DNA of 64,000 bases from a virus. This document shows positions 1-36,618 of the stretch, piece after piece. The stretch covers positions 27,854 through 91,853 of IMG/VR virus record IMGVR_UViG_3300037755_001058, one strand, 5' to 3'. Made by a program: the position numbers and the translations under genes. The notes beneath the pieces are model-generated. The model ran no database searches, was not told the origin of the DNA, and worked only from the letters and a program-made list of their open reading frames with translations. Position 1 is the first letter of the stretch. Every line of letters starts with the position of its first letter.

Positions 1-607
1 CGCTTGGTCCAGGGCGTCTGACCAGGTGGTCTGGGAGGATGGTGCTCAGGAGCTGTGCACATCGGAGGGATCTAGGCTAGCCTCCAAGTACTCTCACAGG
101 ATTCCACTGGTTGAGCCGTCAGAACAAGATTTGAAGATTGCCAGGACGGCCGTAGCCTCTGCCTGTCGAACATTTTCAGTGGCCAACGACGATTTCAACA
201 CGGTATTTGTGCGATGCTGTCACGTACAGTTCGCCGTGACAACGCTCGAGCGACTGTTCGACGGTGAGCTGCAATATCGAGACTACTCGGAGTTCATGGA
301 TCGTCAGCGCATCGATAGAGGCGAGGTTACCAAGGTAGTCGTAGGACTTCAACCACGCGCTGTACCAGCAACGTGTAGAGCCCTTCTGGGCCTGAGGAAG
401 GTGAACCCCAATTCGATTGGAATGGTGCTAGGTCTGGACGGTGGAGAGGCGCGCCTGTTCATGTCCAAGCTGGCACAGAATGGCGCTGCGATCTTCGACA
501 CCGAGAACGGTCGAAACACTTCGATGGTGTGGACCTCAGACTTCGTAGGGTTGCTGCGAGACATGGAGACGAACCCTCCTGAGGTAGATGGGGAGGACCT
601 CTTCTAA
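1..607 (+). CDS. 5'-truncated ORF, possibly the C-terminus of an MCM-like/AAA+ replicative helicase
   Basis: KIARTAVASAC...V..CHVQFAV resembles the MCM C-terminal lid helices, followed by a possible winged helix. The ATPase motifs would lie upstream of the window. Confidence 0.35.
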   Translation, partial: AWSRASDQVVWEDGAQELCTSEGSRLASKYSHRIPLVEPSEQDLKIARTAVASACRTFSVANDDFNTVFVRCCHVQFAVTTLERLFDGELQYRDYSEFMDRQRIDRGEVTKVVVGLQPRAVPATCRALLGLRKVNPNSIGMVLGLDGGEARLFMSKLAQNGAAIFDTENGRNTSMVWTSDFVGLLRDMETNPPEVDGEDLF

Positions 608-2233: not shown

Positions 2234-3013
2234 TTGAACGTTCAGGCCTGCGCCCCAAATGGTATCGATCTCGTCGACCTGCCTTCGGACCCTCAGGCCG
2301 ATATGATCTCTCGCCAGAGGCGCTTCCAGGCTCGGGTATACGGAGAAGCCAAGCTGGCAGAGTTGCGCGATTTCGGCTCATCACGGCGCTGTGACGTACG
2401 GGCCGTGTTGCATCACCTAGACATGGGTGGTCAGGAGTGCTCCGAGGCCTGGGACATGGTCGAGGGTGGATGGAAACACCACAAGACCAATCCGCACGAT
2501 CCTGACAAGCTCGAACTCATGATGGAGCTCGTCGATATCATGTGTTTCGCGCTGAACACGTACATCTACATGGGGGGTCAGCCTGAATCGGAACTCGTGG
2601 CGGCGGCCGTTGCCAGGAGCAAGGAACAGATGCGATACCCGAAGATTGGCCTCGACGAGGCATGGGTCATCGGGGCATCGAGCTGGGAGAGGAACGGCCC
2701 GAAGATGCGAGCCCTGTACGATCATGGCCGCGGTAGCCATGGGCGGGAGTGGACCAAGGAAGCCGCGACGCGCATCAACTTCCTCAGGGCACAGTTCTTC
2801 GACTCAGCAGCAACCATCAGGTACGGTCTGTCGAGGATGACCAAGGCCGAGCGCGAGACGTTTCCGCCGGCGTCCGGTTATGTCTACATCCAACTCGTTC
2901 CGTGGATCTGCGGTGCGGTTCAGGCGATCCCTGGAATGGGACTACAGGACCTGTACTCTGCCTTCGTGAAGAAGGACCAGATCAACAATGAGAGGCAAGA
3001 TGCAGGCTATTAG
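2234..3013 (+). CDS. Dimeric all-alpha dUTPase/dCTPase (dUTPase_2 / T4 gp56-like NTP pyrophosphatase)
   Basis: ECSEAWD...WKHHK, ELVDIMCF and terminal KKDQINNERQDAGY motifs; GGAGG before the TTG start. Confidence 0.8.
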   Translation: MNVQACAPNGIDLVDLPSDPQADMISRQRRFQARVYGEAKLAELRDFGSSRRCDVRAVLHHLDMGGQECSEAWDMVEGGWKHHKTNPHDPDKLELMMELVDIMCFALNTYIYMGGQPESELVAAAVARSKEQMRYPKIGLDEAWVIGASSWERNGPKMRALYDHGRGSHGREWTKEAATRINFLRAQFFDSAATIRYGLSRMTKAERETFPPASGYVYIQLVPWICGAVQAIPGMGLQDLYSAFVKKDQINNERQDAGY

Positions 3014-4211
3014 CCTGGGGTACCAATCGCATCCGTTGGACGACCAGTTCTCTGCGATCACGGTTCGTTTGAACGAGGCGTCCGATGAGCACACAGCTCT
3101 CGGGACATGCATCTTCGCCGGAGGATTTTCCTTCGGAATGGAAGAGGCCGGGTTCACGGTGGCCGGTCATCTCGAACTTCCGGACCTGGCCCTCGGGTCT
3201 CACACCTCCAAGCAGAGGTGGCCGGTTGCCGTAGCCAGTCTCGATCTATGGAAGGAGTACATCGATCAGCTGCGGGATAAGGACATCGTTCCAGATGTAT
3301 TCTACGCCAATCCACCTTGCGTTGCTTACGCCGGTACTGGGAAGCACGATGGAACGATGGATAGTCGTATGTGCTATACCAGGTACTGCGCGTACGATGC
3401 AGCCATGAGACTTCAGCCTGACGTCTGGATGTGGGAGCTGGTCGACGGAGTCATGCGAGACCGAGGATTTCTCGATGCGATGGCGTTCCGAGCGAAGTCC
3501 CTCGGGTACAGGTGCTACGCATTCCTTACATCATCGGCTATCCATGGTGGATACCAGGACAGGCGTAGATTCCACTTCGTTGCTAGCCGGTTCGAGCTAG
3601 ACTTCGAGGATGTGTGGGCCAACGAGCCCGTTCCTCGTAGGACCGTGCACACCCTCTCAGAGGCGTTGGCGTCGGTGCCTGCAGGTTCTACCAACCACGA
3701 GACCGTGTATAGGGGAGCATTCCGATCGATCTTCCCGTTCTGCCCCCCGGGAATGCACCTTCGGGATGTGTCTGATGATGTCATGCGTGAGCACTACCGT
3801 CCACGTGGTACTGCGTGGACAGGCACGGGGAGACCTGGGTTCTCACACACGCGTGCGAGGATGGACCGGCCATCCCCTAATGTCCTCGGAGGCCATACGA
3901 TAATCCACCCCATCGAGAACAGGTACCTCACACCTCGTGAGTGCGCCGCTATCATGGGGTTTCCCCATGACTACGCCTTCAGCCACGGTGCTATGGCGTA
4001 CGCTGAGATAGGCAGGGGGTTGTGCACCCACAACGCCGCGTTCCTGGGGAGGGTAGTCAAGAACGCTCTTGAGAGGCGCGTGCGTACGGTGCCGACCAGG
4101 GTTGACGACTCCTGGATGACAGTGGTAGACTGGCGCCGGAGGGCCAAGCCCCTTCGGCTGAAGATGACCGAAGCCGAAATCGAGGCTTGGTGGAGTGAGC
4201 GAGTTTCGTAA
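3000..4211 (+). CDS. C5-cytosine DNA methyltransferase homolog with atypical cofactor-binding motifs (candidate carboxymethyltransferase)
   Basis: Motif IV PPC (Cys at 3318), motif VI WELV, motif VIII QDRRRF, motif IX RYLTPRECAAIMGFP, motif X YAEIGRGL; start could be 2988 or 3000. Confidence 0.85.
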   Translation: MQAISLGYQSHPLDDQFSAITVRLNEASDEHTALGTCIFAGGFSFGMEEAGFTVAGHLELPDLALGSHTSKQRWPVAVASLDLWKEYIDQLRDKDIVPDVFYANPPCVAYAGTGKHDGTMDSRMCYTRYCAYDAAMRLQPDVWMWELVDGVMRDRGFLDAMAFRAKSLGYRCYAFLTSSAIHGGYQDRRRFHFVASRFELDFEDVWANEPVPRRTVHTLSEALASVPAGSTNHETVYRGAFRSIFPFCPPGMHLRDVSDDVMREHYRPRGTAWTGTGRPGFSHTRARMDRPSPNVLGGHTIIHPIENRYLTPRECAAIMGFPHDYAFSHGAMAYAEIGRGLCTHNAAFLGRVVKNALERRVRTVPTRVDDSWMTVVDWRRRAKPLRLKMTEAEIEAWWSERVS

Positions 4212-8230: not shown

Positions 8231-8304
8231 TCCCGAATTGAGCGGAGCTACGAGACTTGATGCAACCTACCATGAGTGTTATAACTCTTGTGGGAGGAGC
8301 AAGG

Positions 8305-9252
8305 ATGGAAGGATTGATCTGTCTACGAACTGGACAGCTCCGCAGAGGTTCTGACGGACAGTCAGAGCCAGTCGATCCCGATGGAATCGAGCACATGTGG
8401 GTGCCCATCATCGAGGGTGAGCCAATGTTCGTTCAGAACGTGGGCTCTACCTCTAACCCGCACGACCGAACCGACGATGGAAGGTTCGACAGATCGCACC
8501 TCTCCCCAGAGAGGGCATACAGGATCGGTCGCGATTACTTGGCGCACTGTATTCGGTACGGTTTCCCGATGAAGGTGATCAAGGAGCACTTCGGGGCTGG
8601 GGTTCGCATCCTGGAGATGGGGTGCGGGAAGGAGATCCCGTTGTTCAGGACGCTCACCTGCGACCATTCCGCCACGAAGTACTACAAGCCGAGTCAGTAC
8701 TGCGGAGTCGACCTGAATCCCATCAAGTACCATCCTCGAGTGACAGGCATCGAGAGCAAGGTTCTCTCGCGCGTCAACTGCGTGACCGAACCGGAGAAGG
8801 TGCCAGATTGGACGTTCGATCTGGTCTTGTCCTTCGAGGTCGTCGAGCACATGGACAAGCCCGACGGTGACAGGTTCCTCGATGCCATGGTGACCTTCGC
8901 CAAGCGCAAGGTCGATCGTGAGGGCAAGCCAGGAATGATCCTCCTGTCGACACCCGTGAACAACGGAACCATCGCCAAGAACCACATCTACGAGTGGCGG
9001 CGCTCGGAGCTGGAACGAGCCTGGACCAGGCGTGGGTGCAGAGTGCTCGAGCAGTACGGTACGTTCAGCAACCTCAGGGACCTGTTCGCGGCTATGGACG
9101 ACACCGAGATCGAGGTGTGGAATCGCATGGCGGCCTACCACAGTCCGAACACGCTGTCATGCGTGTTCAGCGCCATGCATCCTGAGGCCGCTAGGAACGT
9201 GGCCTGGAAGATCGAGGTTGGTGAGGATTCACACCCTCTGGATGGACGATGA
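8305..9252 (+). CDS. Class I SAM-dependent methyltransferase
   Basis: HCIRYGF, ILEMGCG, GVDL, FDLVLSFEVVEHM, ILLSTP..NHIYE; GGAGG upstream of ATG 8305. Confidence 0.85.
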   Translation: MEGLICLRTGQLRRGSDGQSEPVDPDGIEHMWVPIIEGEPMFVQNVGSTSNPHDRTDDGRFDRSHLSPERAYRIGRDYLAHCIRYGFPMKVIKEHFGAGVRILEMGCGKEIPLFRTLTCDHSATKYYKPSQYCGVDLNPIKYHPRVTGIESKVLSRVNCVTEPEKVPDWTFDLVLSFEVVEHMDKPDGDRFLDAMVTFAKRKVDREGKPGMILLSTPVNNGTIAKNHIYEWRRSELERAWTRRGCRVLEQYGTFSNLRDLFAAMDDTEIEVWNRMAAYHSPNTLSCVFSAMHPEAARNVAWKIEVGEDSHPLDGR

Positions 9253-9464
9253 GCAAAGGTACGACGTGTCTGGCGTGCCGGCACTGTTTCATGGAGCCGG
9301 ACGATGACTTCTGCTGCGGGCATCCAGATGCCGGAGAGGTGGGGACGTACGTCAAACGCGCAGCGGTGGAGGGGGGACACTGCGGCCCAGAGCGGCCGAA
9401 GTTCGAGCAGCACCCGCTCCGCACCGCCGACGGCTACATGAAGCCGATCGAGCGTACCACATGA
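9249..9464 (+). CDS. Small Cys-rich (possible Zn-binding) hypothetical protein
   Basis: CLACRHC...CC...C; ATGA overlaps with both neighbouring genes. Confidence 0.65.
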   Translation: MSKGTTCLACRHCFMEPDDDFCCGHPDAGEVGTYVKRAAVEGGHCGPERPKFEQHPLRTADGYMKPIERTT

Positions 9465-9880
9465 ATTACTACCTCGCAACCAAGCTCGAACGTGCCGAAG
9501 AAGCACGCGCAGTGCACTTCAACCTGGTTTCTCTCGATGTAGGCTTCAAGTGTACCTACGACTGGACAACCCATGGTTCGGTCAAGAACACCTCCAGGAT
9601 CCGTCTGGCAGAGGTTGGACTGAACGAGACCAAGGGTGTCCTCAGTGCTGACGTGGTGATCGTTCTTCTTCCTGGAGGGCGAGGCACCCACGCCGAGCTC
9701 GGAATCGCGATCGGCGCTGGCAAACGAGTGATCCTTCATTCGAAGACCGGCAATGAGTTCGAGGTCAACGACGGGACCTGTGCGTTCTACTGGCAGCCGC
9801 TGTGCGAGAGGGTCGTGGGAGACCTAACCGCGCTCGTCAAGTACCTCGCCGAGCCGGCCGTCGGGATGATCGTCAGGTGA
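9461..9880 (+). CDS. Nucleoside 2-deoxyribosyltransferase-like / (d)NMP N-glycosidase (DNPH1/MilB fold)
   Basis: YYLA, YDWT, GVLSADVVIVLLPGGRGTHAELGIAIGAGKRV (catalytic Glu motif GT.aElG.A). Confidence 0.75.
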   Translation: MNYYLATKLERAEEARAVHFNLVSLDVGFKCTYDWTTHGSVKNTSRIRLAEVGLNETKGVLSADVVIVLLPGGRGTHAELGIAIGAGKRVILHSKTGNEFEVNDGTCAFYWQPLCERVVGDLTALVKYLAEPAVGMIVR

Positions 9881-10758
9881 ACCCAGTCATCATCATCGAG
9901 GGTCCGGACGGGGTGGGCAAGACCACCCTGTGCGATGCCCTCGCACAGAGGTTTTTGGGCTCGTGTACGATTGTTCATTCCGTTCACTATGGCCCACCAC
10001 CCGGTGATGAACCAACCGCCCTGTACTACTGGGACGAGGTGGACAACATCCTGGGCCTGGCGAAGTCCGGTCCAGTGATCGTCGACAGATTCCATGTTGG
10101 TGAGATGGTCTACGGCCCGATCCTCCGGGGTGATGCTGGGATGAGCCTCGACGAGGCTTGTGTCATCGACATGCGACTGCAGGCCATCGGCGCCATGATG
10201 TGTCATTGTAGGCTATCATCCACAGACCTATCGTCCAGATTGCTGTCCAGGGACGGCGGCCTTCCGGATTCTGCTAGCGGCGCCGCGCTGGGCCACAGCG
10301 AAGCCGTTCGGGCAGCGTTCTTTGGGATGACCAACGGAGTGCTTCCGTCGTCTTGGGAGCAGCTCGATATGACCTGGTACCCAGCACAGCTGGTTCCACT
10401 GGTGGCGCTGTCGTCGATCTCCCTGAGCACATTCGGTGCGGAGGTTGGGGTCATCGGCAATGTCAGGTCTCCACAAGTGCTCATCAAGGTGCCGAACTCT
10501 GACATGGATACCCTCTCGAGGGTAGTTCGAGGTTTGAGGTTGGCGGGGATGGTACGGGTCTCTGCCATCGAATATGATGACACCGATCTGAACTACACAA
10601 CCGTATCTCGATCAGTAGCCATGGGGTTGTCACTGCATCGTACCCTCATGGAAAGGGGGTTCAAGCTCCCGTCTGTCGTGTCCACCGACGCGACTCCGGA
10701 AGATATCGCCGAGGCAGTACGAACCGCCGTGGTGGCACAGCCCAGTCCGGAAGGATAG
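9877..10758 (+). CDS. dNMP/thymidylate-kinase-like P-loop kinase with an extra C-terminal domain
   Basis: IIIEGPDGVGKTT and VIVDRFHVGEMVYGPILRG; GTG 9877 overlaps the upstream stop. Confidence 0.8.
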   Translation: MNPVIIIEGPDGVGKTTLCDALAQRFLGSCTIVHSVHYGPPPGDEPTALYYWDEVDNILGLAKSGPVIVDRFHVGEMVYGPILRGDAGMSLDEACVIDMRLQAIGAMMCHCRLSSTDLSSRLLSRDGGLPDSASGAALGHSEAVRAAFFGMTNGVLPSSWEQLDMTWYPAQLVPLVALSSISLSTFGAEVGVIGNVRSPQVLIKVPNSDMDTLSRVVRGLRLAGMVRVSAIEYDDTDLNYTTVSRSVAMGLSLHRTLMERGFKLPSVVSTDATPEDIAEAVRTAVVAQPSPEG

Positions 10759-10778
10759 ACACATGGGTGAGGTGAACG

Positions 10779-11033
10779 ATGAAGTTCAACGAGACGGCCA
10801 TCAAGGCGCTCCCGGAGCGAAACCAGAGAACGATCATGAACCTCCTCAAGGAGTTGGAGGTCTCCCCGGAGCGGGGGACCTTCGTGATCAGTCGGGAGAT
10901 CCTCGACCGGATGACCCCCCGGCAGCTCAGGACGCTCAGGCTGATGCGGCGCGTCCACGACGCGATGGACGTTCCGGTGGTGACACGAGGCCGTTCATCA
11001 ATCAAGCGGAAGGAGTCGACCGCGACGGAGTGA
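10779..11033 (+). CDS. Hypothetical protein
   Basis: GAGGTG SD; host-like codon usage; TGATG coupling to the next gene. Confidence 0.65.
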   Translation: MKFNETAIKALPERNQRTIMNLLKELEVSPERGTFVISREILDRMTPRQLRTLRLMRRVHDAMDVPVVTRGRSSIKRKESTATE

Positions 11034-11989
11034 TGTCATTCGGCTCGATGGATGAGCTCTTCAGGTTCGCCGTCTGGAAGTGCATCGAGCATGGACGGAT
11101 GACCAAGCCGAGGGGCTTTTCGGTTCTGGAGATCGCCACTCCCACCGTGCTCACCTTGCGGGACGTCCACAGGCCGTTCATCCACTCGCCTCTGCGACGG
11201 CCCAACTACCGATTCGGCCTGGTAGAGGCCGCATGGATCGCAGCCGGATCCGATCGTCTGGCCCACCTTTCCGCCGTGAACTCGCGGATGGCACGGTTCA
11301 GCGATGATGACTCCACGATGTGGGGTGGGTATGGGCCGCGCGTGATCGGTCAACTCGACCATGTCATCGAGACACTGCGGCGGGACAACGACAGTCGCCA
11401 GGCGGTCGTGACGACATGGCGACCCATGGTTCCACCGGTGGTGGGCAAGTCTCAAGGCCCGATTCGATCGGCTGGCCTGATGGCCACAGGTTCTGAGACG
11501 GTCAGTCCTACATGGGATGGCTACTCCTGGCGATCAAAGGACGTCCCGTGCACCGTAGCATGGCACTTCCAGTTGCGGAACGGCGGACTGGCTCTGACCG
11601 TATTCATGCGGTCTAACGACGTGTGGCTGGGGTTGCCGTACGACGTGCTGAGCTTCACCACCATCCAGCGTGTGGTTGCTTCTGCACTTGGTGTGAGACT
11701 CGGTGCGTACCACCATGTGGTCAGCAACCTTCATCTGTACCAGAAGAACTACGAGGCTGCTGTCAGTCTCATGGGGGAGACCGTCTCCAACGAGACTGTG
11801 GTGATGCCACCATTCGATGACCTGTTCCTCGGTGGCAGTAGTGATTCGATGTCGACGATCTTCAACACGACTCTCAACGGCTCTCTCATCTTGATGTCCA
11901 AGCCCGGGATGCAGCCGTTCATCTCGGCGGTGATTGGATCCGATGAATGGGACGACTTCCGAAAGCTCATGGCTGCTAACGGAAGGTGA
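11033..11989 (+). CDS. Thymidylate-synthase-fold pyrimidine C5 transferase, predicted dCMP-specific (hydroxymethylase/methylase)
   Basis: FSDD...YGPR, DSRQAV, KDVPC (catalytic Cys), MRSNDVWLGLPYD (Asp at the E. coli ThyA N177 position), NLHLY. Confidence 0.85.
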   Translation: MSFGSMDELFRFAVWKCIEHGRMTKPRGFSVLEIATPTVLTLRDVHRPFIHSPLRRPNYRFGLVEAAWIAAGSDRLAHLSAVNSRMARFSDDDSTMWGGYGPRVIGQLDHVIETLRRDNDSRQAVVTTWRPMVPPVVGKSQGPIRSAGLMATGSETVSPTWDGYSWRSKDVPCTVAWHFQLRNGGLALTVFMRSNDVWLGLPYDVLSFTTIQRVVASALGVRLGAYHHVVSNLHLYQKNYEAAVSLMGETVSNETVVMPPFDDLFLGGSSDSMSTIFNTTLNGSLILMSKPGMQPFISAVIGSDEWDDFRKLMAANGR

Positions 11990-12001: not shown

Positions 12002-14389
12002 ATGCTCGACGCCTCCTACAGGATCTGTTGGTCTATCGACTCTTGGGTATCAACCCTTCGAGAGGCTCAGGATTCGTGGATAGTTGGGTATGACTTCGAA
12101 ACCTGTCCTGACAGGTTCCATGCCGACTACCACCCGAAGAAGGGTCGCGATGGCAAGCCGAGTAAGTGCATCCCCAGCGCTCTTCGTCCTGAGGATGGAG
12201 CAAGAATCGCGGGCATAGCCATTTCATGGCTCGACACCAATGACCGAATCAGGTCCGCGTACGCCCCCATCAGGCACGATCCACGGTTCGCGGGTGGTGA
12301 TCAGCTTGACCCATTGCAGGTCTGTAAGGCATTCAGCGACTTCATCGCCGACAGGCCTGCTGATAGGTATCTGGTTGTTCACAATCTCATGATGGAGCTT
12401 AGTTGTCAGCTGGCCGAGAATATCGTGTGGCCGAAGGAGGGGCAACTTCACGACATTCAGATCGCGGCCAGGGTTCTCAACCGGGGAGTAGGATTCCAGG
12501 AGCTGATCGGCCTCAAGCCACTCCAGGCCGAGGTGTTGAAGCGAGACATGGGGTCCAAGAACGACTTGGATCGTTGGCTGAAGGCCCATAGGTTCAAGCC
12601 TGGTCGTGACATCTGGAGAGCCCCTGCACCATTGGCCGGTTGGTACGCTCAGGATGATGCCCGTGACACTCTCGAGATCTGTCTGAAGTGGTGGAAGCTG
12701 ATTCATCAGCCACCTACCAGATGGTGGTGGCACAGGGCACCAGATAGGTCTCAGCGCCTGGACCTGTACGAACTCGAGATTCGTGCGGCTATTGAAGCCA
12801 CAATCTCATGCATGCGTGGGACACGGTACGATGCACCCTTCTGCCGGCGTCAAGGACGCGCGGCCGAGGTACTGCAGTCCATCGCTCGCGACTGGATCCG
12901 AGGATACCTGGGAATGCCGGCCCTCAATCCAGGAAGCCAAACCCAGCTCAGAGGTGTTCTGTTCGGAACTCGGTTCAACTTCGAAGTCTCGCTCGAGCAC
13001 ACGACGGAGAGCTTCAAGAAGCTACCAGAGCGTGAACAGGCATCGACAATAGCTGGGCATGGCAAGGCACCTCTGGTGAGTTACGCCTCTCTCGATGTTG
13101 ATGCCCTCAAGTACTACGAGTCCAAGTACATAGAACACGCGGACCTGCTGTTCATGCTGGCTGTGTACCGTAAGTGCTCCACAGCCATATCGTGGTTCGA
13201 TGACAGGGTCCTGCAGTTCGGCGTTCGTGGATCTCCAGATCCATGGTGGAATTCAGACGCTGGTTCGTACCTGAACTTGATGTTCCATCGTCTGAGGACG
13301 GTAGGGACCGGCCCGGGCCGGATGAGCAGTTCAGACTACAACGCTCAGCAGGTGCCGAAGCGACTGAAGATGCTGCTGAACGCAGCTCGGCTATTCCGTA
13401 TCCTGGAGGAGGTCATGCACCCGTCCAGGCTAAACGGAATCATGTCGATTCTGATTAGAGTACCGTGTAAGGAGGGCGACGAGGCGAAGGTCCTTGGACT
13501 GCAGCCTGGTGACGAGGTGGTGGACTTCTCCATCAGGAGAATGTTTATCTCCAGGCCGGAGTTCAACCTCAGGACGTTCGACCTCTCACAGGTCGAGATG
13601 CGTGGGTTTGCCCATTACACGGGTAATCGCCTACTGTGTAACGGGTACGGGCCACCGTTGGCTAACGTCGCGGCCTTAGCAGAGTTAGACGCCGTCCAAG
13701 CTCTCATGGAGGAACGTGAGCCTGATTGGTCGAATGTCGATGTTGAACGCCATGTTAGGATGGAGGAGAACGAGTTCGACATTCATGGATTCGTCAGTGA
13801 CGAGCTGAGCATCTCACGCAAGGGTGGAAAGGGGATCAACTTTGGGCTCGTCTACGGAATGGGTGAAAAGAAGCTGGCTCGAGGTCTAGGGTGGTCACCT
13901 GGCGACGGAAAGCTGTACCTAGCCAGATACCATGCCAAGTTTCCAGAGATCAGGCAGATGCAGGGAAAGATCGTCATCGCCCTGAGGAGCAGGGGATACG
14001 TCTTCGATCCATTCGGCAGACGTTACTACCTACCGGTGGCCAGAGCGTACGTAGGCTTGAACCGCCTGATCCAAGGGTGGGCTGCCACTGCGTTCAAGGT
14101 GGGATTCGTCAGGACCTCCGAGGTGTTCAGGTCACCAGGGTTCGGTGGTGGGTCTATCGATTCTGTCACTGGACTCCGTCGTAGTGATGGAGCCAGAATC
14201 CTCACCTGTATCCATGACGAGCAGATGGGTGAGATCCACAGGTCGCTCGATAATGTCAGGACTGACTGGGTGGTCAGGTCGTGCATGACGAACCTGTTCG
14301 GATTGAACGTACCGCTAGCATCGTCATCTGAACGTTCCGACGGCCCGTGGGACAATGCTACCGGTGTCTCGGCTAAACTACCAGTATGA
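12002..14389 (+). CDS. polA: Family A DNA polymerase with 3'-5' exonuclease
   Basis: ExoI YDFET, ExoII HNLMMEL, ExoIII YAQDD, motif A DLSQVEMR, motif B RKGGKGINFGLVYG, motif C IHDE. Confidence 0.93.
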   Translation: MLDASYRICWSIDSWVSTLREAQDSWIVGYDFETCPDRFHADYHPKKGRDGKPSKCIPSALRPEDGARIAGIAISWLDTNDRIRSAYAPIRHDPRFAGGDQLDPLQVCKAFSDFIADRPADRYLVVHNLMMELSCQLAENIVWPKEGQLHDIQIAARVLNRGVGFQELIGLKPLQAEVLKRDMGSKNDLDRWLKAHRFKPGRDIWRAPAPLAGWYAQDDARDTLEICLKWWKLIHQPPTRWWWHRAPDRSQRLDLYELEIRAAIEATISCMRGTRYDAPFCRRQGRAAEVLQSIARDWIRGYLGMPALNPGSQTQLRGVLFGTRFNFEVSLEHTTESFKKLPEREQASTIAGHGKAPLVSYASLDVDALKYYESKYIEHADLLFMLAVYRKCSTAISWFDDRVLQFGVRGSPDPWWNSDAGSYLNLMFHRLRTVGTGPGRMSSSDYNAQQVPKRLKMLLNAARLFRILEEVMHPSRLNGIMSILIRVPCKEGDEAKVLGLQPGDEVVDFSIRRMFISRPEFNLRTFDLSQVEMRGFAHYTGNRLLCNGYGPPLANVAALAELDAVQALMEEREPDWSNVDVERHVRMEENEFDIHGFVSDELSISRKGGKGINFGLVYGMGEKKLARGLGWSPGDGKLYLARYHAKFPEIRQMQGKIVIALRSRGYVFDPFGRRYYLPVARAYVGLNRLIQGWAATAFKVGFVRTSEVFRSPGFGGGSIDSVTGLRRSDGARILTCIHDEQMGEIHRSLDNVRTDWVVRSCMTNLFGLNVPLASSSERSDGPWDNATGVSAKLPV

Positions 14390-14399
14390 GGAGGACGCA

Positions 14400-14795
14400 G
14401 TGGCAGAAGGATCTGAGGATCTGGAGCGGAACAAGGAAGGCAAGAAGTGGAAGAACGACAAGCAGAGCCGCCGCGAGAACCATGTCATCATCGAGGAGAG
14501 GACGCTGCTGACCTTGGTGAAGTCGGGTAACGTCGACATCAGGGTCGAAGTCAAGCGTCACATGACCAAGAAGAATCAGATCCCGCAGAACTTCATCGAC
14601 ATTCGTGAGTGGTGGTACGCTCAAGGCCCGGACGAACCGCCCGTCCCGAAGAGGGCCGGGGTGATGCTACACCGTGAGCACATGGGCCGCATCATCGAGG
14701 CCATCTTGAAAGAGTTGGCCGTAGGTGAGATCAGCGAGGAGCACCTCGAGAGCATCTCGGTCGAGATAGAGAGGATCGGTGCCACCGAACCCTGA
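14400..14795 (+). CDS. PC4-like ssDNA-binding protein
   Basis: FIDIREWWY...PVPKRAGVML matches the PC4 signature; GAGGAGG before GTG 14400. Confidence 0.75.
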   Translation: MAEGSEDLERNKEGKKWKNDKQSRRENHVIIEERTLLTLVKSGNVDIRVEVKRHMTKKNQIPQNFIDIREWWYAQGPDEPPVPKRAGVMLHREHMGRIIEAILKELAVGEISEEHLESISVEIERIGATEP

Positions 14796-15180
14796 AACCA
14801 AGATCACGGTGACCATAAGGAAGCACCTCGAGACTCGAGGTGCACACTTCGTGAAGCTGAGCGACAGTTTCACCCGTGGAGTTCCTGACGCCCTGGTCGT
14901 TACCAACCGACCTGTCATGGTAGAATTCAAGGTCGACAGGCTTGTTGGTACCGATATGATGAGGACGTATCGATCTCTAGGGTTGTCAGGCGCTCAGGAC
15001 CACCACATCAAGGCCCTGCATCGACGGTGTCTGAACTCGGCGGCTGTTGTCACCAACACCGCCCGTGAGAATCGACTTCGGGTGTGGGTCCCACTCAACC
15101 CGCACGACGAGAAAAACGAGACGTACATCTGCATCGCCGAAGGATGGAGGGAGTTCGATCTGTTCATGGGAGTCGCATGA
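14779..15180 (+). CDS. VRR-NUC nuclease / Holliday junction resolvase
   Basis: PETKI...RGVPDALV...MVEFK...LSGAQ. Confidence 0.8.
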   Translation: MPPNPETKITVTIRKHLETRGAHFVKLSDSFTRGVPDALVVTNRPVMVEFKVDRLVGTDMMRTYRSLGLSGAQDHHIKALHRRCLNSAAVVTNTARENRLRVWVPLNPHDEKNETYICIAEGWREFDLFMGVA

Positions 15181-15653
15181 TGGACAGCCCACCAGACCTT
15201 AGGGTGCTGTTGGTGGAGCTCGCCCGGGAGCTCAATCGGATTCGTCCTGAATCCGTTCTGGGTGCGGAGCTGGAGCGAGTATCCACGGCCAAGAACACGT
15301 TGTTAGTGCTCAGTCGTGTTCTAACGGCCATGGCCGTTCGGGCCGGCGTATCGAAGGATGCGGTTGACAGGGCCGTGGCCAAGGCCCGTCGGGCTAACGA
15401 ACCCAAGCAGGGTGACATGTTCGTTCCTGTTGTGGTCAGCCCGGTTGCTGAGACGTTGACGACTACCACGGATTGGTACATCATCGCTGAGGTTGACCTG
15501 GTGCTTCTCAAGCACCGAACGGAACTTCCAGACTGGTTCGTTAACGATTTCTGGCCAGGCTGCATACGGCGCGCGGCTCAGGGCCTGAGGTTGACTGATC
15601 GAGAGCGAGCAATTGCCGAGTACCAAGCCAGTAAGGCCAGGGGGGAACGGTGA
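15177..15653 (+). CDS. Hypothetical protein
   Basis: Fills the gap between neighbours with ATGA/GTGA overlaps. Confidence 0.6.
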   Translation: MMDSPPDLRVLLVELARELNRIRPESVLGAELERVSTAKNTLLVLSRVLTAMAVRAGVSKDAVDRAVAKARRANEPKQGDMFVPVVVSPVAETLTTTTDWYIIAEVDLVLLKHRTELPDWFVNDFWPGCIRRAAQGLRLTDRERAIAEYQASKARGER

Positions 15654-18958: not shown

Positions 18959-21613
18959 GTGACGGCGGGCCGCGCGTTCCATACCGATAGTCGCACGTGG
19001 AGCAACTTCCAGCCGAACGAACTGGTCAAGCTCTGCGGCGTCCCGATGGGCCGGTGGCCCGTGTACGTCGTCAAGGAGCTCCTCGACAACGCCGTGGCGG
19101 CGCTTGAGGAACACGCTCTTCGGGTGCCGATGATTCGTGTGACGGTGACCAAGGACTACGTTGAGGTCATGGACAACGGTCCTGGCATCTCAGACGTCGT
19201 TCTCGAGAAGGTCCTGGACTTCGAGCGGTTCGGTGGTAGCAACCGTCATCACAAGCTGCCAACCAGGGGGGCCCAAGGCAACGCGATCATGACCATCGTC
19301 GGGATCGCCTCCGCCTGGGCACCGGACCGAAGCATCGAGGTCTCGCGGCCCTCTGGACCCCGAGTCGCACTGGATGTGAAGCTCGACAAGGTCCTGCAAG
19401 AGGTCAAGGTCGAGACCATCACTGTAGGCGAGCCAGGGCCGTCTGCCATCAGGGTGCCGTGGCCGGTCGAGGTCCCGTGGAAGCGGGGTGGCTCTTCGTT
19501 CGAGGATGTTGTCTCCACGATCAGAGACTTCTCCTGGATGAACCCCCACGTACAGTTCATGATGACGGACTCCACTGGGAAGTCCACGGCGACCAGGTCG
19601 GTCCTGATGGAGCCCGGGGCCACAGCCGCAATGCGCGGATCGTTCTCATGTGGTGCCGCATCCTGGTTCACCAGAGACGAGTTCTACGAGAGGATGGCTG
19701 CAGACGTTCGTGCCAGACCCGACATCATGATGTCGGACTGGTGCAAGGAGTTTGCCTTCTCGAAGGTGGGCCCGGCCGTGCTGTCCCTCTCCGGAGAGCC
19801 CGATGGGACGCTGTCCGCCAAGGTAACGGTGGACAGCGGGCACAAGGTGTCGTCATTCCTTCAGGGCCTCGTCCTCGGATGCAGCAACCTGAAGCTGGCG
19901 GAGAATCCACAGTTCGTACCGCTGGGCAAGGATCGGATGGCAGGGTTTCTGACCTCGGAGCGTGGGTCAGATCGTGACTGTGATGCCCAGTACCATTCGC
20001 TCACCGGGTCATTCGGCGACGGCGATACCAAGGTCCCATTCCTGGTGGAGGTCTGCCTTCAGCAGATGCCTGACAGGGTCAGGTACTCGCCAGAGCCAAC
20101 ACTGGCGATGAACCGTACCGTGCTGTACGGCTCTCCGTCGTTCCGGCGGAAGGACGGCTTCCAGTGGCGCGAGAAGGTCCGTGGCAACTGGCATGGCCTG
20201 GATGGGGACTTGGGGGCCCTGGCCAGGGCGTACCAAATCGACCACGGGAAGACGCCGGCGGCTATCCTGGTCCATGTGACCTGTCCATCGCCGGGGTACG
20301 CCGGCTATGGCAAGCAGCAGTTCGACACCTCATGGCTGGCCGGACCACTCAGCCAGTGCTTCGAGCGCGTGACGCTCGAGGTCAGGAGACAGCGGGCTGG
20401 AGAGGCTCGACGTAAGAACGCGAACCGCCCGAAACGGGATACCATCCGTGAGGAGATGTTCCGACTCGTTCCAGGTGTACTGGACGAGGTCACCGATAGC
20501 GGAAAGTACGAGCCGCTCATCAGGCAGTTCTACTACTCCTTCAGGAAGGAGTGGTACACTCAGGACGATCGAGAGCTTCACTACGGAACGTTCTGTGCGT
20601 ACGTCGACGAGTACGAGCGCAGCATCGGAAGGTTGGTCTGTCTGAGAGACCCCCGTGGAACCCTGTACGAGCCACATAGCAACAAGGTGGTCCGCCTCGG
20701 TACGAGCGATGTGCGGGACTACAAGCCGAAGAAGTGGGAGGGCCACACCATCATCTTCGTCGAGAAGGAGAACCTCGCCTCTCAGATGAGGGCGATGAAC
20801 ATCCACAAGCGGTGGGATGCCATCATCGTCGGGTCCAAGGGGTTCGCCGTCGAGGCCATCCGGGAGGTACTCCAAAAGTACCGACGGCTGCTCGGAGATC
20901 TGGTGAAGATCGTCGTCCTGCACGACGCCGACCCGGCAGGGTACATGATCGGATACGATCTGGCCACCAACCTCCCGAGGTTCGGTGATACGGTCGACGT
21001 CCAGGTCATCGACGTCGGTCTCACGATCAGAGATGCTGTCACCATGGGGCTTCAGGACGAACCATTCGACCTGTCCAAGCAGGTCTGGTCGATGATCACG
21101 AAGACCATGATGACCAAGACCCTCAAGGACCCTGACGGAACCACTCGGCCCCTGCTAGAACCGGAGGCGCGTGACTCCTTCGTTCCGAGCATCTGGCAGG
21201 GCGCCGAGTATCCATCCTGGGCTGACAAGCCTCGCGGTCGACGAGTGGAGCTCAACGCGATGCCTCCACGAGAATTCGAGGCTTGGGTCGAAAGGAATCT
21301 GGAGATACATGGCTGCAGGAAGGTCAGGCCACCGGATGAGGTCGTGAGCGAGCAGATGGTGAACGCTCGAACGAACGCCATCACGAACCAGACCGGCGAA
21401 CTGTTCATGCGCCTGATGGGTCAGGAAGTGGTTGATGAGGTGCTGCGCGAGATCGGCGTGCCATCGTACGATCTGGACTCTGTTCTGGAGAGCCGGCCTG
21501 AACAGCACTGGCACTACCTGGTCACCAGAGCTGCCCAGTCCGGACAGGACATCGGCCAGGCAGTGGAACGGGTGATGAAGCGGCGGTTCCCCCAAATGTT
21601 CGGAGGTGGGTGA
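18959..21613 (+). CDS. Fused type IIB DNA topoisomerase (Topo VI B+A in one chain; Topo VIII-like)
   Basis: GHKL boxes KELLDNA, DNGPGIS, RGAQGNA; Spo11/Top6A-type RQFYY (catalytic Tyr), FVEKE, SKGF, HDADPAG, RRVELNAM. Confidence 0.85.
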   Translation: MTAGRAFHTDSRTWSNFQPNELVKLCGVPMGRWPVYVVKELLDNAVAALEEHALRVPMIRVTVTKDYVEVMDNGPGISDVVLEKVLDFERFGGSNRHHKLPTRGAQGNAIMTIVGIASAWAPDRSIEVSRPSGPRVALDVKLDKVLQEVKVETITVGEPGPSAIRVPWPVEVPWKRGGSSFEDVVSTIRDFSWMNPHVQFMMTDSTGKSTATRSVLMEPGATAAMRGSFSCGAASWFTRDEFYERMAADVRARPDIMMSDWCKEFAFSKVGPAVLSLSGEPDGTLSAKVTVDSGHKVSSFLQGLVLGCSNLKLAENPQFVPLGKDRMAGFLTSERGSDRDCDAQYHSLTGSFGDGDTKVPFLVEVCLQQMPDRVRYSPEPTLAMNRTVLYGSPSFRRKDGFQWREKVRGNWHGLDGDLGALARAYQIDHGKTPAAILVHVTCPSPGYAGYGKQQFDTSWLAGPLSQCFERVTLEVRRQRAGEARRKNANRPKRDTIREEMFRLVPGVLDEVTDSGKYEPLIRQFYYSFRKEWYTQDDRELHYGTFCAYVDEYERSIGRLVCLRDPRGTLYEPHSNKVVRLGTSDVRDYKPKKWEGHTIIFVEKENLASQMRAMNIHKRWDAIIVGSKGFAVEAIREVLQKYRRLLGDLVKIVVLHDADPAGYMIGYDLATNLPRFGDTVDVQVIDVGLTIRDAVTMGLQDEPFDLSKQVWSMITKTMMTKTLKDPDGTTRPLLEPEARDSFVPSIWQGAEYPSWADKPRGRRVELNAMPPREFEAWVERNLEIHGCRKVRPPDEVVSEQMVNARTNAITNQTGELFMRLMGQEVVDEVLREIGVPSYDLDSVLESRPEQHWHYLVTRAAQSGQDIGQAVERVMKRRFPQMFGGG

Positions 21614-24812: not shown

Positions 24813-25691
24813 ATGTTCTACATCGACAAGGACACACAACGTGTTCGACGGATCGTGACGGTGGAGACCGAAGCTCCAGACTTCATCCACGCTACCGTCG
24901 TGGCTGGGTTCCGTGAGATGCGATCCACCGCCGGACGACGCCCTGGACCGGAGTGGAGGCCGGACCCCAAGTTTCAGGGGGACTCGAGGAAGTGGCTCTC
25001 GTACAAGGCGGTCATCAAGGAGGGGGTGATGATCCGTCGCGAGGATATCACTCCAGAGTACCCGAGGGGCGCCGAGAAGTACCAGTTCGGCCGAGAGACT
25101 TACGACGGGATCGTCAGGCCCATCGTCAAGAGTGCGATCGATGCACGTCCTGCGCGTCGTCGGAAGGTCCCGCTGTCGATCCGTGAGGCGGTCGTGGACA
25201 ACGAGTGCGAGCGCGCCGGGGTACCGAAGCTCGAACCCGAGGAACTCGAGTCGATCGTCGCTTCCATCCAGAAGGAGATCACCGAGCCCAATGCCGAGAA
25301 GCGCGAGAAGGCCCGACGGGCCATCGTGGCGGATGGGAGGACGATCGTACCGGCTCAGAAGGAGCCCCCTGTGGAGGAGCCCCCTGTGGAGGAGCCCCCT
25401 GTGGAGGAGCCCCCTGTGGAGGACAGCGGAAGTGCCGTCGAGAAGCGCGAGAAGGAGAACTCTCGATGGTCGGACAGTCTCTCGATGGTCGTCAACAACA
25501 ACGAGGATGGAGACCTCTTCGAAGAGGCGGTGGCCGTGAGAGGATGGCCGATCCCTCTGGTCGCCGATGCCAAGCGTCGGGTGAAGGGAGCGGCTGGTGT
25601 CACTCTCGCCTTCGCGGCGAAGACCAACTACAACCCGGACAAGCACGGAACCGTGAAGAGCCACGAGATCGAGACTGGTACCAGCGAGTAA
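24813..25691 (+). CDS. Hypothetical protein with EPPVE repeats
   Basis: AAGGAG SD; biased codon usage. Confidence 0.75.
   Translation: MFYIDKDTQRVRRIVTVETEAPDFIHATVVAGFREMRSTAGRRPGPEWRPDPKFQGDSRKWLSYKAVIKEGVMIRREDITPEYPRGAEKYQFGRETYDGIVRPIVKSAIDARPARRRKVPLSIREAVVDNECERAGVPKLEPEELESIVASIQKEITEPNAEKREKARRAIVADGRTIVPAQKEPPVEEPPVEEPPVEEPPVEDSGSAVEKREKENSRWSDSLSMVVNNNEDGDLFEEAVAVRGWPIPLVADAKRRVKGAAGVTLAFAAKTNYNPDKHGTVKSHEIETGTSE
25362..25421 (+). repeat. 4 x 15-bp tandem repeat GAGCCCCCTGTGGAG
   Basis: Read directly from the sequence. Confidence 0.95.
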
Positions 25692-25750
25692 TCGCGAACC
25701 AGCTCTCTGGCACTGATCGATCAACCAGGTTACCCTGAACCTGGGTAGGT

Positions 25751-26578
25751 GTGATGAAATTGTACGAGGCAGTCGTACTTGATGGGGTTCCTGAGCCCGA
25801 CCTGCCTGGCCACGTCAAGGCTCAGATCCCTGAGTTGTACGCCGACGCCGAGTACCCGTACCTCATCCCACCATTGTACCCCGGTCCGTCTCTAGGCGGA
25901 TGGCAGAGTGTCCCCTCGGCTGGTGAGGGGATTGCCGTCATCGACCTCGGAGGTGGATCGTTCAGATGGATCGGCACCCTCGACACGGCGGCCGCGATCG
26001 GTGCCAATCCAGCTGGAAGGGTTGGAGCTCGATCGAAGGACGGTCGGCATAGCATCATCATCGATGATACCTACGGAGTGCAGTTCGCGGTGCAAGATGA
26101 TGCAGCCGACGAGATGCAGTTCGTTCGTATCGATCCTGATGGGACCATCCAAATCAACACGGCCCTCGGTCACACGTTCCTGATGCAGACCGATGACGAA
26201 CTGGTCCATCTGCAGACTCCTGGTGGAAACATCCTCCAAATGAGCACCGATGGCATCATGATGGTCCACTCCGACGGGGTGGCCAGCATGGAGCTGAAGT
26301 CCGGTGACATCGCCACTCTCGGCGGAACGGTGGTACAGATCAGCGGTGGTAGTATCGAACTCGGAGATGGTTCGATTCCACCGACGAACCCATACATACT
26401 GTCACTCAGCTTCATGGCAGACCTCGCTCTCCTGTGTGCTGACGTGATCGCCATCGGTGCTGCCATTCCCACCATGTCACCGTACGTAGCGACGAATGCT
26501 GCGTCAATGTCTGGTAAGATCGGTTCATCACTAGGTGCAGGTGCGCCGTACCTCTCGACGAGGATCTACGGAGACTAG
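25751..26578 (+). CDS. Baseplate central spike (gp5/gpV/VgrG-like OB fold plus beta repeats)
   Basis: PDLPGHVKAQIP...SVPSAGEGIAV, then GHTF/GGNI beta-repeat pattern; first gene of the baseplate block. Confidence 0.7.
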   Translation: MMKLYEAVVLDGVPEPDLPGHVKAQIPELYADAEYPYLIPPLYPGPSLGGWQSVPSAGEGIAVIDLGGGSFRWIGTLDTAAAIGANPAGRVGARSKDGRHSIIIDDTYGVQFAVQDDAADEMQFVRIDPDGTIQINTALGHTFLMQTDDELVHLQTPGGNILQMSTDGIMMVHSDGVASMELKSGDIATLGGTVVQISGGSIELGDGSIPPTNPYILSLSFMADLALLCADVIAIGAAIPTMSPYVATNAASMSGKIGSSLGAGAPYLSTRIYGD

Positions 26579-26580
26579 AT

Positions 26581-26730
26581 ATGGCTACGCGCTGCAAATT
26601 CCCCGCGCTGCCAATCCCTGCCATCCCAAGCTTCACGTTTCCACCACCACTGCCGGCGCTACCGATTCCCAAGATACCATCGTTCAAGTGCATCCTCGAC
26701 GAAGTACTGGGGCCACCCCCGGAGAAGTGA
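26581..26730 (+). CDS. Small Pro-rich protein (49 aa; not in the ORF track)
   Basis: MATRCKFPALPIPAIPSFTFPPPLPALPIPKIPSFKCILDEVLGPPPEK; exactly fills the gap between the spike and gp25-like genes. Confidence 0.6.
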   Translation: MATRCKFPALPIPAIPSFTFPPPLPALPIPKIPSFKCILDEVLGPPPEK

Positions 26731-26733
26731 CGA

Positions 26734-27063
26734 ATGGCCAGAACCATGAAGTGGCCCCCGGTTCCGATCAACGGTCGGATCGGAATGGTAGAGGGGGTCG
26801 ACGCGACCAACATCCTGCTGCTACAGACTCTCGGGGATCTGCGGGCCAACCCTTTCAACGACGACAACATCTCGCTCGGCAACATCACCTACAAGCCAGT
26901 GGGTGTAGCCAAGGGACGAATTCAAGGAGCGCTAGAACGACTCCGAAGGATCGTGTCGGTAGAGTCGGTGGTGGAATCGGGTGATGTCGAGGATCGTACG
27001 TACACCATTCGGTTCACTGATCGCGAGACCAGGGTACGGTCAGAGGTAACGATCGATGGCTGA
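26734..27063 (+). CDS. gp25/GPW-like baseplate wedge subunit
   Basis: Size, position before the J-like gene, and the IQGALER.RRIVSVESV...YTIRF pattern. Confidence 0.6.
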   Translation: MARTMKWPPVPINGRIGMVEGVDATNILLLQTLGDLRANPFNDDNISLGNITYKPVGVAKGRIQGALERLRRIVSVESVVESGDVEDRTYTIRFTDRETRVRSEVTIDG

Positions 27064-36545: not shown

Positions 36546-36618
36546 GTGGCCGTAACTCAGACGGACAGAGTGCCGACCTCCTAAGTCGGAAACGTAGGTT
36601 CAAGTCCTGCCGGCCACA
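36546..36618 (+). tRNA. tRNA-Arg (anticodon CCT), CCA not encoded
   Basis: Acceptor GTGGCCG/CGGCCAC, D arm CTC..GAG, anticodon arm CCGAC-ctCCTaa-GTCGG, T arm GTAGG-TTCAAGT-CCTGC. Confidence 0.93.

Follow-up and report, generated by a model that had tools for sequence, protein, structure and literature searches.

A viral protein with the C5-cytosine-methyltransferase fold and a rebuilt cofactor pocket accompanies a dCMP hydroxymethylase module

What does an enzyme do when it has kept the catalytic core of a DNA cytosine methyltransferase and replaced the residues that surround the transferred methyl group? This question is raised by a gene encoding a protein of the C5-cytosine-methyltransferase fold in a 64,000-nucleotide stretch of viral DNA (the window), positions 27,854 to 91,853 of the IMG/VR record IMGVR_UViG_3300037755_001058. 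The record is 91,853 bp long, with an estimated completeness of 85%, and the window covers its final 64 kb; the DNA has been found in sediment metagenomes and no RNA holders are listed for it. A preliminary description of the sequence had suggested that the protein might transfer a carboxymethyl group from carboxy-S-adenosylmethionine (carboxy-SAM), with a role on 5-hydroxymethylcytosine (5hmC) as the alternative. Our analysis indicates that the gene belongs to a large uncharacterised viral branch of the C5-cytosine-methyltransferase fold, seen in metagenomes only, and that it probably takes part in cytosine hypermodification, and not as a carboxy-SAM enzyme like CmoX.

The assignment to the fold is secure. 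The open reading frame (ORF) matches the Pfam family PF00145 with an expectation value (E) of 3.8e-19 (69.7 bits; cut-off 22), and an AlphaFold2 model, with a confidence score (pLDDT) of 91.9, adopts the C5-methyltransferase fold. In a Foldseek search this model matched M.HaeIII, 3G7U (the CP-933R methylase) and 8YF3 (CmoX) near-equally, at about 1e-16, with a probability of 1.00 for these three and for M.HhaI; all of the top fold matches are DNA cytosine methyltransferases. The start of the ORF overlaps the end of the pyrophosphatase gene upstream, and there is an alternative ATG at 3000, the start that was used in the preliminary description.

The catalytic side of the protein is intact, as the preliminary description had noticed: the Cys of the PC motif, the motif VI Glu and the Arg residues of motif VIII (Cys111, Glu150, Arg192, and Arg194) align with the corresponding residues of M.HhaI and M.HaeIII. 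The translation also bears out its reading of altered motifs on the cofactor side, namely GTCIFAGGF, ELV, and YAEIGRGL, the last with an AGG codon for Arg343 exactly where it had been placed. In phmmer alignments, Arg343 stands opposite the motif X Asn of both M.HaeIII and M.HhaI (Asn304), Val112 opposite Gln82 of M.HhaI, and Leu151 opposite its Asn120, so that the three residues of the methyl-transfer pocket (the Gln after PC, the Asn of ENV, and the motif X Asn) are all replaced. An hhalign comparison with SpCmoX (GenBank MN018232.1) pairs GRGL with GRMV, and Arg343 therefore corresponds to SpCmoX Arg350; the placement is based on sequence and profile alignments, not on ligand or residue-level structure geometry. 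The motif II residue Glu63 is kept as well; in M.HhaI its counterpart, Glu40, binds the ribose of the cofactor. These results confirm a member of the C5 DNA methyltransferase superfamily whose catalytic core is intact and whose cofactor pocket is rebuilt. We propose that the enzyme is catalytically competent, as predicted from the catalytic residues that it retains.

The same pattern runs through a whole family of viral proteins. A word-indexed search returned 58 homologs of 39-62% identity, all metagenomic and many on contigs of 75-108 kb, and an exhaustive HMMER search found 1,960 representatives at E <=0.001, 468 of them at <=1e-10. We counted residue conservation in the 200 best relatives, which are about 28% identical (some columns have n=196). 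Of the catalytic set, the Cys is found in 195/196, Glu150 and Arg192 in 200/200, and Arg194 in 199/200. The adenosine-binding residues of known enzymes are likewise kept, with Phe or Tyr at position 43 in 193/196 and Glu at position 63 in 189/196, and G45, G46, and F47 of motif I are conserved. The pocket columns tell the opposite story: the column of HhaI Gln82 holds A, V, or S and never Q, that of Asn120 holds S, L, or C and never N, and the motif X column is R in 92 relatives, K in 72, Q in 34, C in 2, and N in none. Given that the same columns are changed throughout the 200 relatives, the altered pocket is not due to chance or sequencing error. The clade can be recognised by the signature F/Y-A-G-G-F, NPPC[AVS], E[SL]V, and [RKQ][GA][VL], which the window protein fits; NPPC itself is found in this protein and in 185/200 relatives. 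Against solved structures, the family profile scores best with 3G7U (2.6e-21) and HaeIII (2e-19), followed by HhaI (about 1e-15) and CmoX (1.3e-12). These profiles set the clade apart from CmoX, to which it is no nearer than to ordinary methylases.

We found no cultured representative of the clade in tblastn searches of 50,697 phage records with the window protein and a relative of the L020 type (described below); all of the matches were at or below 34% identity. The two that were examined are not of this clade: Nostoc phage N1, which has the canonical SPCQ/ENV/GNAV motifs and is without the ThyA-fold gene discussed below, and Flavobacterium phage Fpv5, which has SPPC/ENV and Met at motif X. 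The Fpv5 methylase (NC_031921.1; L156, 6929-7996) has SPPC and ENV as in SpCmoX and IGMSVPP, where Met takes the place of the motif X Asn; the annotated 15-kb stretch around it lists neither thymidylate synthase nor CmoA.

Several other variants of the NPPC protein turned up among the metagenomic relatives. Some close relatives carry a second paralog of about 600 residues with a C-terminal extension of about 180 residues; L008, from the same 107.8-kb phage as L006, is one such case, and P0045 and P0023 (for both, the longest contig listed is 100,715 bp) form another. In P0045 the catalytic Cys has become Tyr, giving NPPY. The window shows a single copy of the gene. In P0198, residues ~76-436 are an intein with a LAGLIDADG endonuclease, inserted immediately before the catalytic Cys of NPPC; the protein reads ...GNPP / CFSPETKIL...VAHN / CASWS..., so the catalytic Cys is also the +1 splice residue.

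What links these proteins to a pathway is their neighbourhood. We scanned IMG/VR with the family alignment and obtained 66 related viral loci. In 49/66 of them, a homolog of the ThyA-fold protein encoded in the window lies within 10 kb of the methylase gene, usually about 2 kb downstream and on the same strand; most of the loci without one end before that point. This ThyA-fold protein has MilA CMP hydroxymethylase as its best solved relative (4e-24), with thymidylate synthases at 5e-14 or weaker. It has Asp at the position of ThyA N177 (codon 11642-11644), Asp at L143, and retains D169; by published criteria that tell the two signatures apart (N177D, L143D/E, and D169 kept for the former; PMC13326640), this is the signature of an enzyme making 5-hydroxymethyl-deoxycytidine monophosphate (5hm-dCMP), not 5-hydroxy-dCMP (5ho-dCMP). 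The Asp at N177 is found in 49/49 linked homologs, and the L143 Asp and the retained D169 wherever they were read. Looking at whole records, PF00303 is present in 36/36 related records, including 12/12 at >=90% completeness. The linkage is not the effect of a single lineage, as the related loci range from 27 to 68% in guanine-plus-cytosine (GC) content and show a dozen gene orders or more; the GC spread also suggests many host lineages.

The controls point the same way. CmoA (TIGR00740), the source of carboxy-SAM in CmoX systems, was detected in 0/36 whole records, 12 of them near-complete, in a search that recovered the CmoA of S-B43 as a positive control at 2.5e-34; the earlier observation that no CmoA is recognisable in the window thus extends to the whole 91.8-kb viral record. 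Nor were there tblastn matches to SpCmoA or SpCmoY in the 66 related loci, or Asn-synthase (PF00733) or ParB (PF02195) domains in five records tested. As a reverse control, we took 80 CmoX-type loci, every one closely related to S-B43: SpCmoA is found in 64 and SpCmoY in 23, and the ThyA-fold gene and the gene for a Methyltransf_23 protein (see below) each in 0/80. Nor does such a ThyA-fold gene accompany ordinary methylases with SPPC/SPCQ, ENV, and GN motifs (L069, Nostoc phage N1).

The composition of these loci is that of a nucleotide-modification module. The commonest type, of which L020 is an example, runs UvrD helicase, NPPC methylase, MazG/PRA-PH pyrophosphatase, a 348-residue protein, deoxynucleoside monophosphate (dNMP) kinase, ThyA-fold protein with the Asp, dCMP deaminase, and PolA. 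The 348-residue protein (phrog_14998, with homologs in T4-like Aeromonas phages) is most similar in a language-model search to T4 beta-glucosyltransferase clusters. In the window, a class I S-adenosylmethionine (SAM) methyltransferase of the Methyltransf_23 family takes the place of this glucosyltransferase-like gene. Both kinds of partner also occur fused to the NPPC domain: a T4 beta-glucosyltransferase-like protein in L044 and L045, and Methyltransf_23 in P0086, P0098, P0198, and L042. In the metagenomic protein P0068 (965 residues), the NPPC methylase, a 3'-5' exonuclease, and a family A DNA polymerase are joined in one chain. We propose that the NPPC branch is a fixed part of a phage module that replaces deoxycytidine (dC) with 5-hydroxymethyl-dC, a replacement that we infer for the window phage.

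In the window, the module extends from the pyrophosphatase to PolA (Table 1). In L006 the methylase homolog is directly preceded by a 48%-identical homolog of the pyrophosphatase, and in many related loci the ThyA-fold gene is directly preceded by a homolog of the kinase-like protein. Other genes around the methylase encode a PD-(D/E)XK protein, an AAA ATPase, and a 579-residue protein without a family match; no restriction partner is seen among the annotated genes there. We could not confirm in the window the dCMP deaminase that related phages have downstream of PolA: the ORFs at 14355-14795 (+) and 15084-15653 (+) have no Pfam match at E <=0.01, and the first has no PHROG match.

Table 1. 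Genes of the module and motifs of the C5-methyltransferase-fold protein, in window coordinates.
Feature	Position	Strand	Remarks
All-alpha dUTPase/dCTPase-like pyrophosphatase (dUTPase_2)	2234..3013	+	PF08761, E 1.4e-8, above cut-off
C5-cytosine-methyltransferase-fold gene	2988..4211	+	407 residues; PF00145; member of the NPPC / E[SL]V / [RKQ]G viral clade
Motif I GTCIFAGGF, residues 39-47	3102..3128	+	Glycine loop shorter than canonical FxGxGG; Phe43 retained
Glu63, motif II acidic residue	3174..3176	+	Aligned with motif II Glu of M.HaeIII
Motif IV NPPC-V	3309..3323	+	Catalytic Cys111; Val112 at HhaI Gln82 position
Motif VI ELV, residues 150-152	3435..3443	+	Glu150 retained; Leu151 for Asn of ENV (HhaI Asn120)
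Motif VIII QDRRR (190-194), Arg192-Arg-Arg194	3561..3569	+	Counterparts of HhaI Arg163, Arg165
Motif X Arg343 (YAEIGRGL)	4014..4016	+	AGG codon; HhaI Asn304 / SpCmoX Arg350 position
Class I SAM methyltransferase (Methyltransf_23)	8257..9252	+	PF13489, E 3.6e-8
P-loop (d)NMP-kinase-like protein	9802..10758	+	Thymidylate_kin, E 2.3e-5, below Pfam cut-off
ThyA-fold enzyme, dCMP hydroxymethylase signature	10763..11989	+	PF00303, E 7.8e-18
Family A DNA polymerase (PolA)	12002..14389	+	PF00476, E 7e-27; closes module

The module resembles that of phage T4, which makes hydroxymethylcytosine with a dCTPase (gp56), a dCMP hydroxymethylase (gp42), a dNMP kinase (gp1), and beta-glucosyltransferase: the window likewise has a pyrophosphatase, a kinase-like protein, and a ThyA-fold protein with N177D/L143D next to a polymerase, and a T4-like glucosyltransferase-like gene is present in many of its relatives. 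To our knowledge, however, the T4 module has no gene of the C5-methylase fold, whereas in the NPPC clade such a gene is a constant member.

The partner methyltransferase deserves a closer look. The public gene call places its start near 8395, at residue 47 of the longest ORF, and this is probably the true start; the 46 residues before it may be untranslated. It is 33-34% identical to the C-terminal domains of the fusions P0098 and P0198 (E 2e-38 and 2e-33), whose N-terminal domains are of the NPPC type, and it has 46 close homologs, many of them listed with longest contigs of the same size as those of the methylase homologs. The partner probably modifies the same base as the C5-fold enzyme, in the next step. 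Its model (pLDDT 84.6) is closest to CmoM in VIA-align (Z 18.7 and 18.5), then to ChlM (18.1), with HEN1 at 16.5 and the rest at or below 16.8; CmoM and ChlM are enzymes that methyl-esterify carboxyl groups. The partner also has a conserved E-x-x-E-H...H motif and weak hits to bacterial Hen1 profiles (E 0.04-0.05), recalling the metal site of Hen1. We rejected the idea that it is a hidden CmoA: BLASTP against SpCmoA gives E 0.99 and the record has no TIGR00740 match. The structural neighbours listed for the partner do not include CmoA, although the two may be distantly related in fold. Nor could it be called a CmoM ortholog, since the profile comparison was not significant (probability 0.25%) and the structural lead is modest.

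How might these pieces fit together? The reading that we favour, tentatively and with its chemistry left unspecified, is a post-replicative role on phage DNA that contains 5hmC. After replication, the enzyme would act on the phage's own hydroxymethylcytosine-containing DNA, which would be made with the help of the dCTPase-like pyrophosphatase, the dNMP-kinase-like protein, the ThyA-fold dCMP hydroxymethylase, and PolA. The base would be flipped out and its cytosine ring held by Glu150, Arg192, and Arg194, while Cys111 would add to C6. The rebuilt pocket on the C5 side (Val112, Leu151, Arg343, and the short glycine loop) would adjoin a cofactor site that retains the adenosine-binding residues, and might handle a polar or anionic C5 substituent rather than deliver a plain methyl group to an unsubstituted C5. 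The hydroxymethyl group could then be exchanged or elaborated, after which the class I methyltransferase would act on the same base.

Several lines of evidence speak for this role on 5hmC. The near-invariance of the catalytic Cys, the Glu, and both Arg over divergent sequences argues for catalysis on a flipped cytosine. The two conserved residues that line the transferable-group pocket of M.HhaI, Gln82 and Asn304, are replaced in all of the relatives counted. The fusions, the many gene orders, and the lack of the ThyA-fold gene in the control loci count in its favour as well. The bond between the family and the dCMP hydroxymethylase module favours action on 5hmC over carboxymethylation of plain cytosine, so that the role given as an alternative in the preliminary description now moves to the front. 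Glucosyltransferases and a carbamoyltransferase (PMC8670742), which are strictly bound to the hydroxymethylase pathway, act on the product of that pathway, 5hmC. In addition, 5hmC is open to covalent attack by ordinary C5-methylases, which can release the hydroxymethyl group from it (PMC11347137).

Several points weigh against it, however. We know of no natural enzyme of the C5-methylase fold that acts on 5hmC. The conserved adenosine-binding residues suggest a cofactor like SAM, and a substituent at C5 would clash with the group that such a cofactor transfers. Arg or Lys at motif X is an exact match to the carboxy-SAM precedent. Finally, the linkage and the fusions show a shared pathway without identifying the substrate, and complete replacement of dC in the window phage is something that we infer.

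A more specific version of the chemistry is possible, though we regard it as doubtful. Here the covalent adduct between Cys and C6 would be used to rewrite 5hmC, the hydroxymethyl group being exchanged for or extended by a polar group (carboxymethyl and an aminocarboxypropyl-type group derived from SAM are among the candidates) that a Hen1/CmoM-like methyltransferase would then cap. Such a product would be a cytosine hypermodification new to science. An exchange of hydroxymethyl for a carboxymethyl-type group would combine the 5hmC and the carboxy-SAM readings.

The carboxy-SAM reading, raised in the preliminary description, would have the protein work as CmoX does: the CmoA of the host would supply carboxy-SAM, and its carboxymethyl group would be placed on unsubstituted cytosines, for example residues that escaped replacement or those of host DNA; the partner would then methyl-esterify the product, as CmoM does on transfer RNA. 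The lead was chemically sound, given what is known of the pocket. SpCmoX uses carboxy-SAM made by a phage CmoA, its Arg350, which stands for HhaI Asn304, contacts the carboxymethyl group, the wild-type enzyme does not accept SAM, and E. coli CmoA can supply CmoX in trans (PMC12783734). In M.HhaI, Gln82 and Asn304 adjoin the transferable group, and replacing them lowers methylation and favours larger groups (PMC3526304). The sole known precedent for a basic residue at the motif X site is carboxy-SAM. Part of the reading stood: the window protein has Arg at the site where CmoX Arg350 binds the carboxylate and a small residue for Gln82, as does SpCmoX, the Lys of 72 relatives mirrors engineered enzymes with Asn changed to Lys, and the structures nearest to the partner are CmoM and ChlM.

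The other part was not supported, and we consider a CmoX-type enzyme unlikely. Although CmoX (S-B43, PDB 8YF3) shares with the window protein the fold, the catalytic PPC, the motif VI Glu, the motif VIII Arg, the Arg at Asn304, and the small residue for Gln82, it differs in having SPPC, ENV, and a full-length glycine loop, where the window protein has NPPC, a motif of the E[SL]V type, and a shorter loop; moreover, a sixth of the relatives counted (34) have Gln at the motif X site. CmoX is not the nearest solved relative of the family, either by profile (1.3e-12 versus 2.6e-21 and 2e-19) or by fold. The loci are also unlike: CmoA is present in 64/80 CmoX-type loci, which have no hydroxymethylase (0/80), whereas the window and the 35 other records have no CmoA, and no CmoY, Asn-synthase homolog, or ParB was found in those loci and records of the clade that were searched for them; the clade is linked to a hydroxymethylase instead. 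In the published survey, by comparison, 5,615 candidate CmoX proteins were defined by SPPC and Arg350, and their contigs also held 4,257 CmoA, 2,251 ligase, and 1,660 ParB sequences (PMC12783734). Reliance on the host for carboxy-SAM is hard to square with hosts spanning 27-68% GC, since a true CmoA was found in 1/14 control genomes, and the module is built to remove from the DNA the very unsubstituted dC that such an enzyme would use.

Could the protein instead be an ordinary SAM-dependent methyltransferase making 5-methylcytosine with an odd motif X, one that adds a further layer of protection by methylating residual cytosines or those of the host? It has the complete set of catalytic motifs and the fold, the adenosine-binding Phe and Glu are conserved, and M.HhaI variants without Gln82 or Asn304 retain reduced methylation (PMC3526304). 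Like M.HhaI and M.HaeIII, it belongs to PF00145 and has the catalytic Cys, the Glu, and the Arg-x-Arg. Unlike them, however, the clade replaces Gln82, Asn120, and Asn304, shortens motif I, and sits in a nucleotide-modification module. Neither the motif X Asn nor the Gln after PC occurs in any of the 200 relatives, such changes lower methyl transfer by M.HhaI, and SpCmoX, with Arg at this site, refuses SAM. Arg at motif X together with a small residue for Gln82 makes plain methyl transfer improbable, and this explanation would also leave the strict hydroxymethylase linkage and the fusions to glucosyltransferase-like proteins unaccounted for; we give it somewhat less credence than a CmoX-type activity.

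The least probable of the alternatives, that the protein does not modify DNA cytosines at all and is a base-flipping or DNA-binding scaffold for its partners, or an enzyme acting on RNA or free nucleotides, can draw on the diversity of fusion partners, the Tyr of the NPPY paralog, and the Hen1-like motif and weak Hen1 matches of the partner, but it conflicts with the near-total conservation of the catalytic residues in motifs IV, VI, and VIII, and with top fold matches that are all DNA cytosine methyltransferases.

Changes at the same pocket positions have been made by design. M.HhaI Q82A/Y254S/N304A (PMC3526304) is altered at the same two conserved positions, Gln82 and Asn304, and M.MpeI N374K (cited in PMC12783734) is changed at motif X; in these enzymes the documented effect is to disfavour methyl transfer and to favour larger or carboxylated groups. 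In contrast to these engineered methylases with opened pockets, the NPPC clade is natural.

CmoX has already been published; in the literature that we searched, the NPPC clade and its tie to the hydroxymethylase are absent, and we found no report of a C5-methylase gene inside dCMP hydroxymethylase modules. The routes of cytosine hypermodification in phages that are known to us are modification at the nucleotide level by ThyA-fold enzymes (giving 5hmC or 5-hydroxycytosine), DNA methylation followed by TET oxidation, and CmoX with CmoA. The loci described here would be a fourth arrangement, in which a C5-methylase-fold enzyme with a rebuilt pocket is the constant partner of a dCMP hydroxymethylase in phages of 27-68% GC. 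Once known, the reaction would be a new activity for the methyltransferase fold and probably yield a new DNA base; tools that derivatise 5hmC in a sequence-directed way might follow, and the resistance of abundant uncultured phages to restriction would be explained in part. Should carboxy-SAM prove to be the cofactor after all, the enzyme would represent a second, independent origin of DNA carboxymethylation, one relying on the host for its cofactor supply.

Some other features of the record are worth recording. A 139-residue ORF at 9461-9880 (+) overlaps the genes on either side of it, those of the class I methyltransferase and the kinase-like protein, and contains a PGGRGTHAE motif of the type seen in LOG/nucleoside-deoxyribosyltransferase-like proteins; an NDT/DNPH1-like protein had been proposed for it in the preliminary description. 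A protein of 954 residues with Toprim-like primase and MCM P-loop helicase domains is encoded at 7596-10460 of L002 (record bases 25596-28460, reaching into window positions 1-607), and just upstream of it are a sigma-70-like factor and a Pam3 gp34-like protein. The window has a single tRNA-Arg gene with anticodon CCT, at 36546-36618 (+). Finally, an 884-residue protein at 18959-21613 (+), with an N-terminal GHKL ATPase domain and, near residue 600, a Toprim domain of the Top6A/Spo11 type, resembles a type IIB topoisomerase in fused form.

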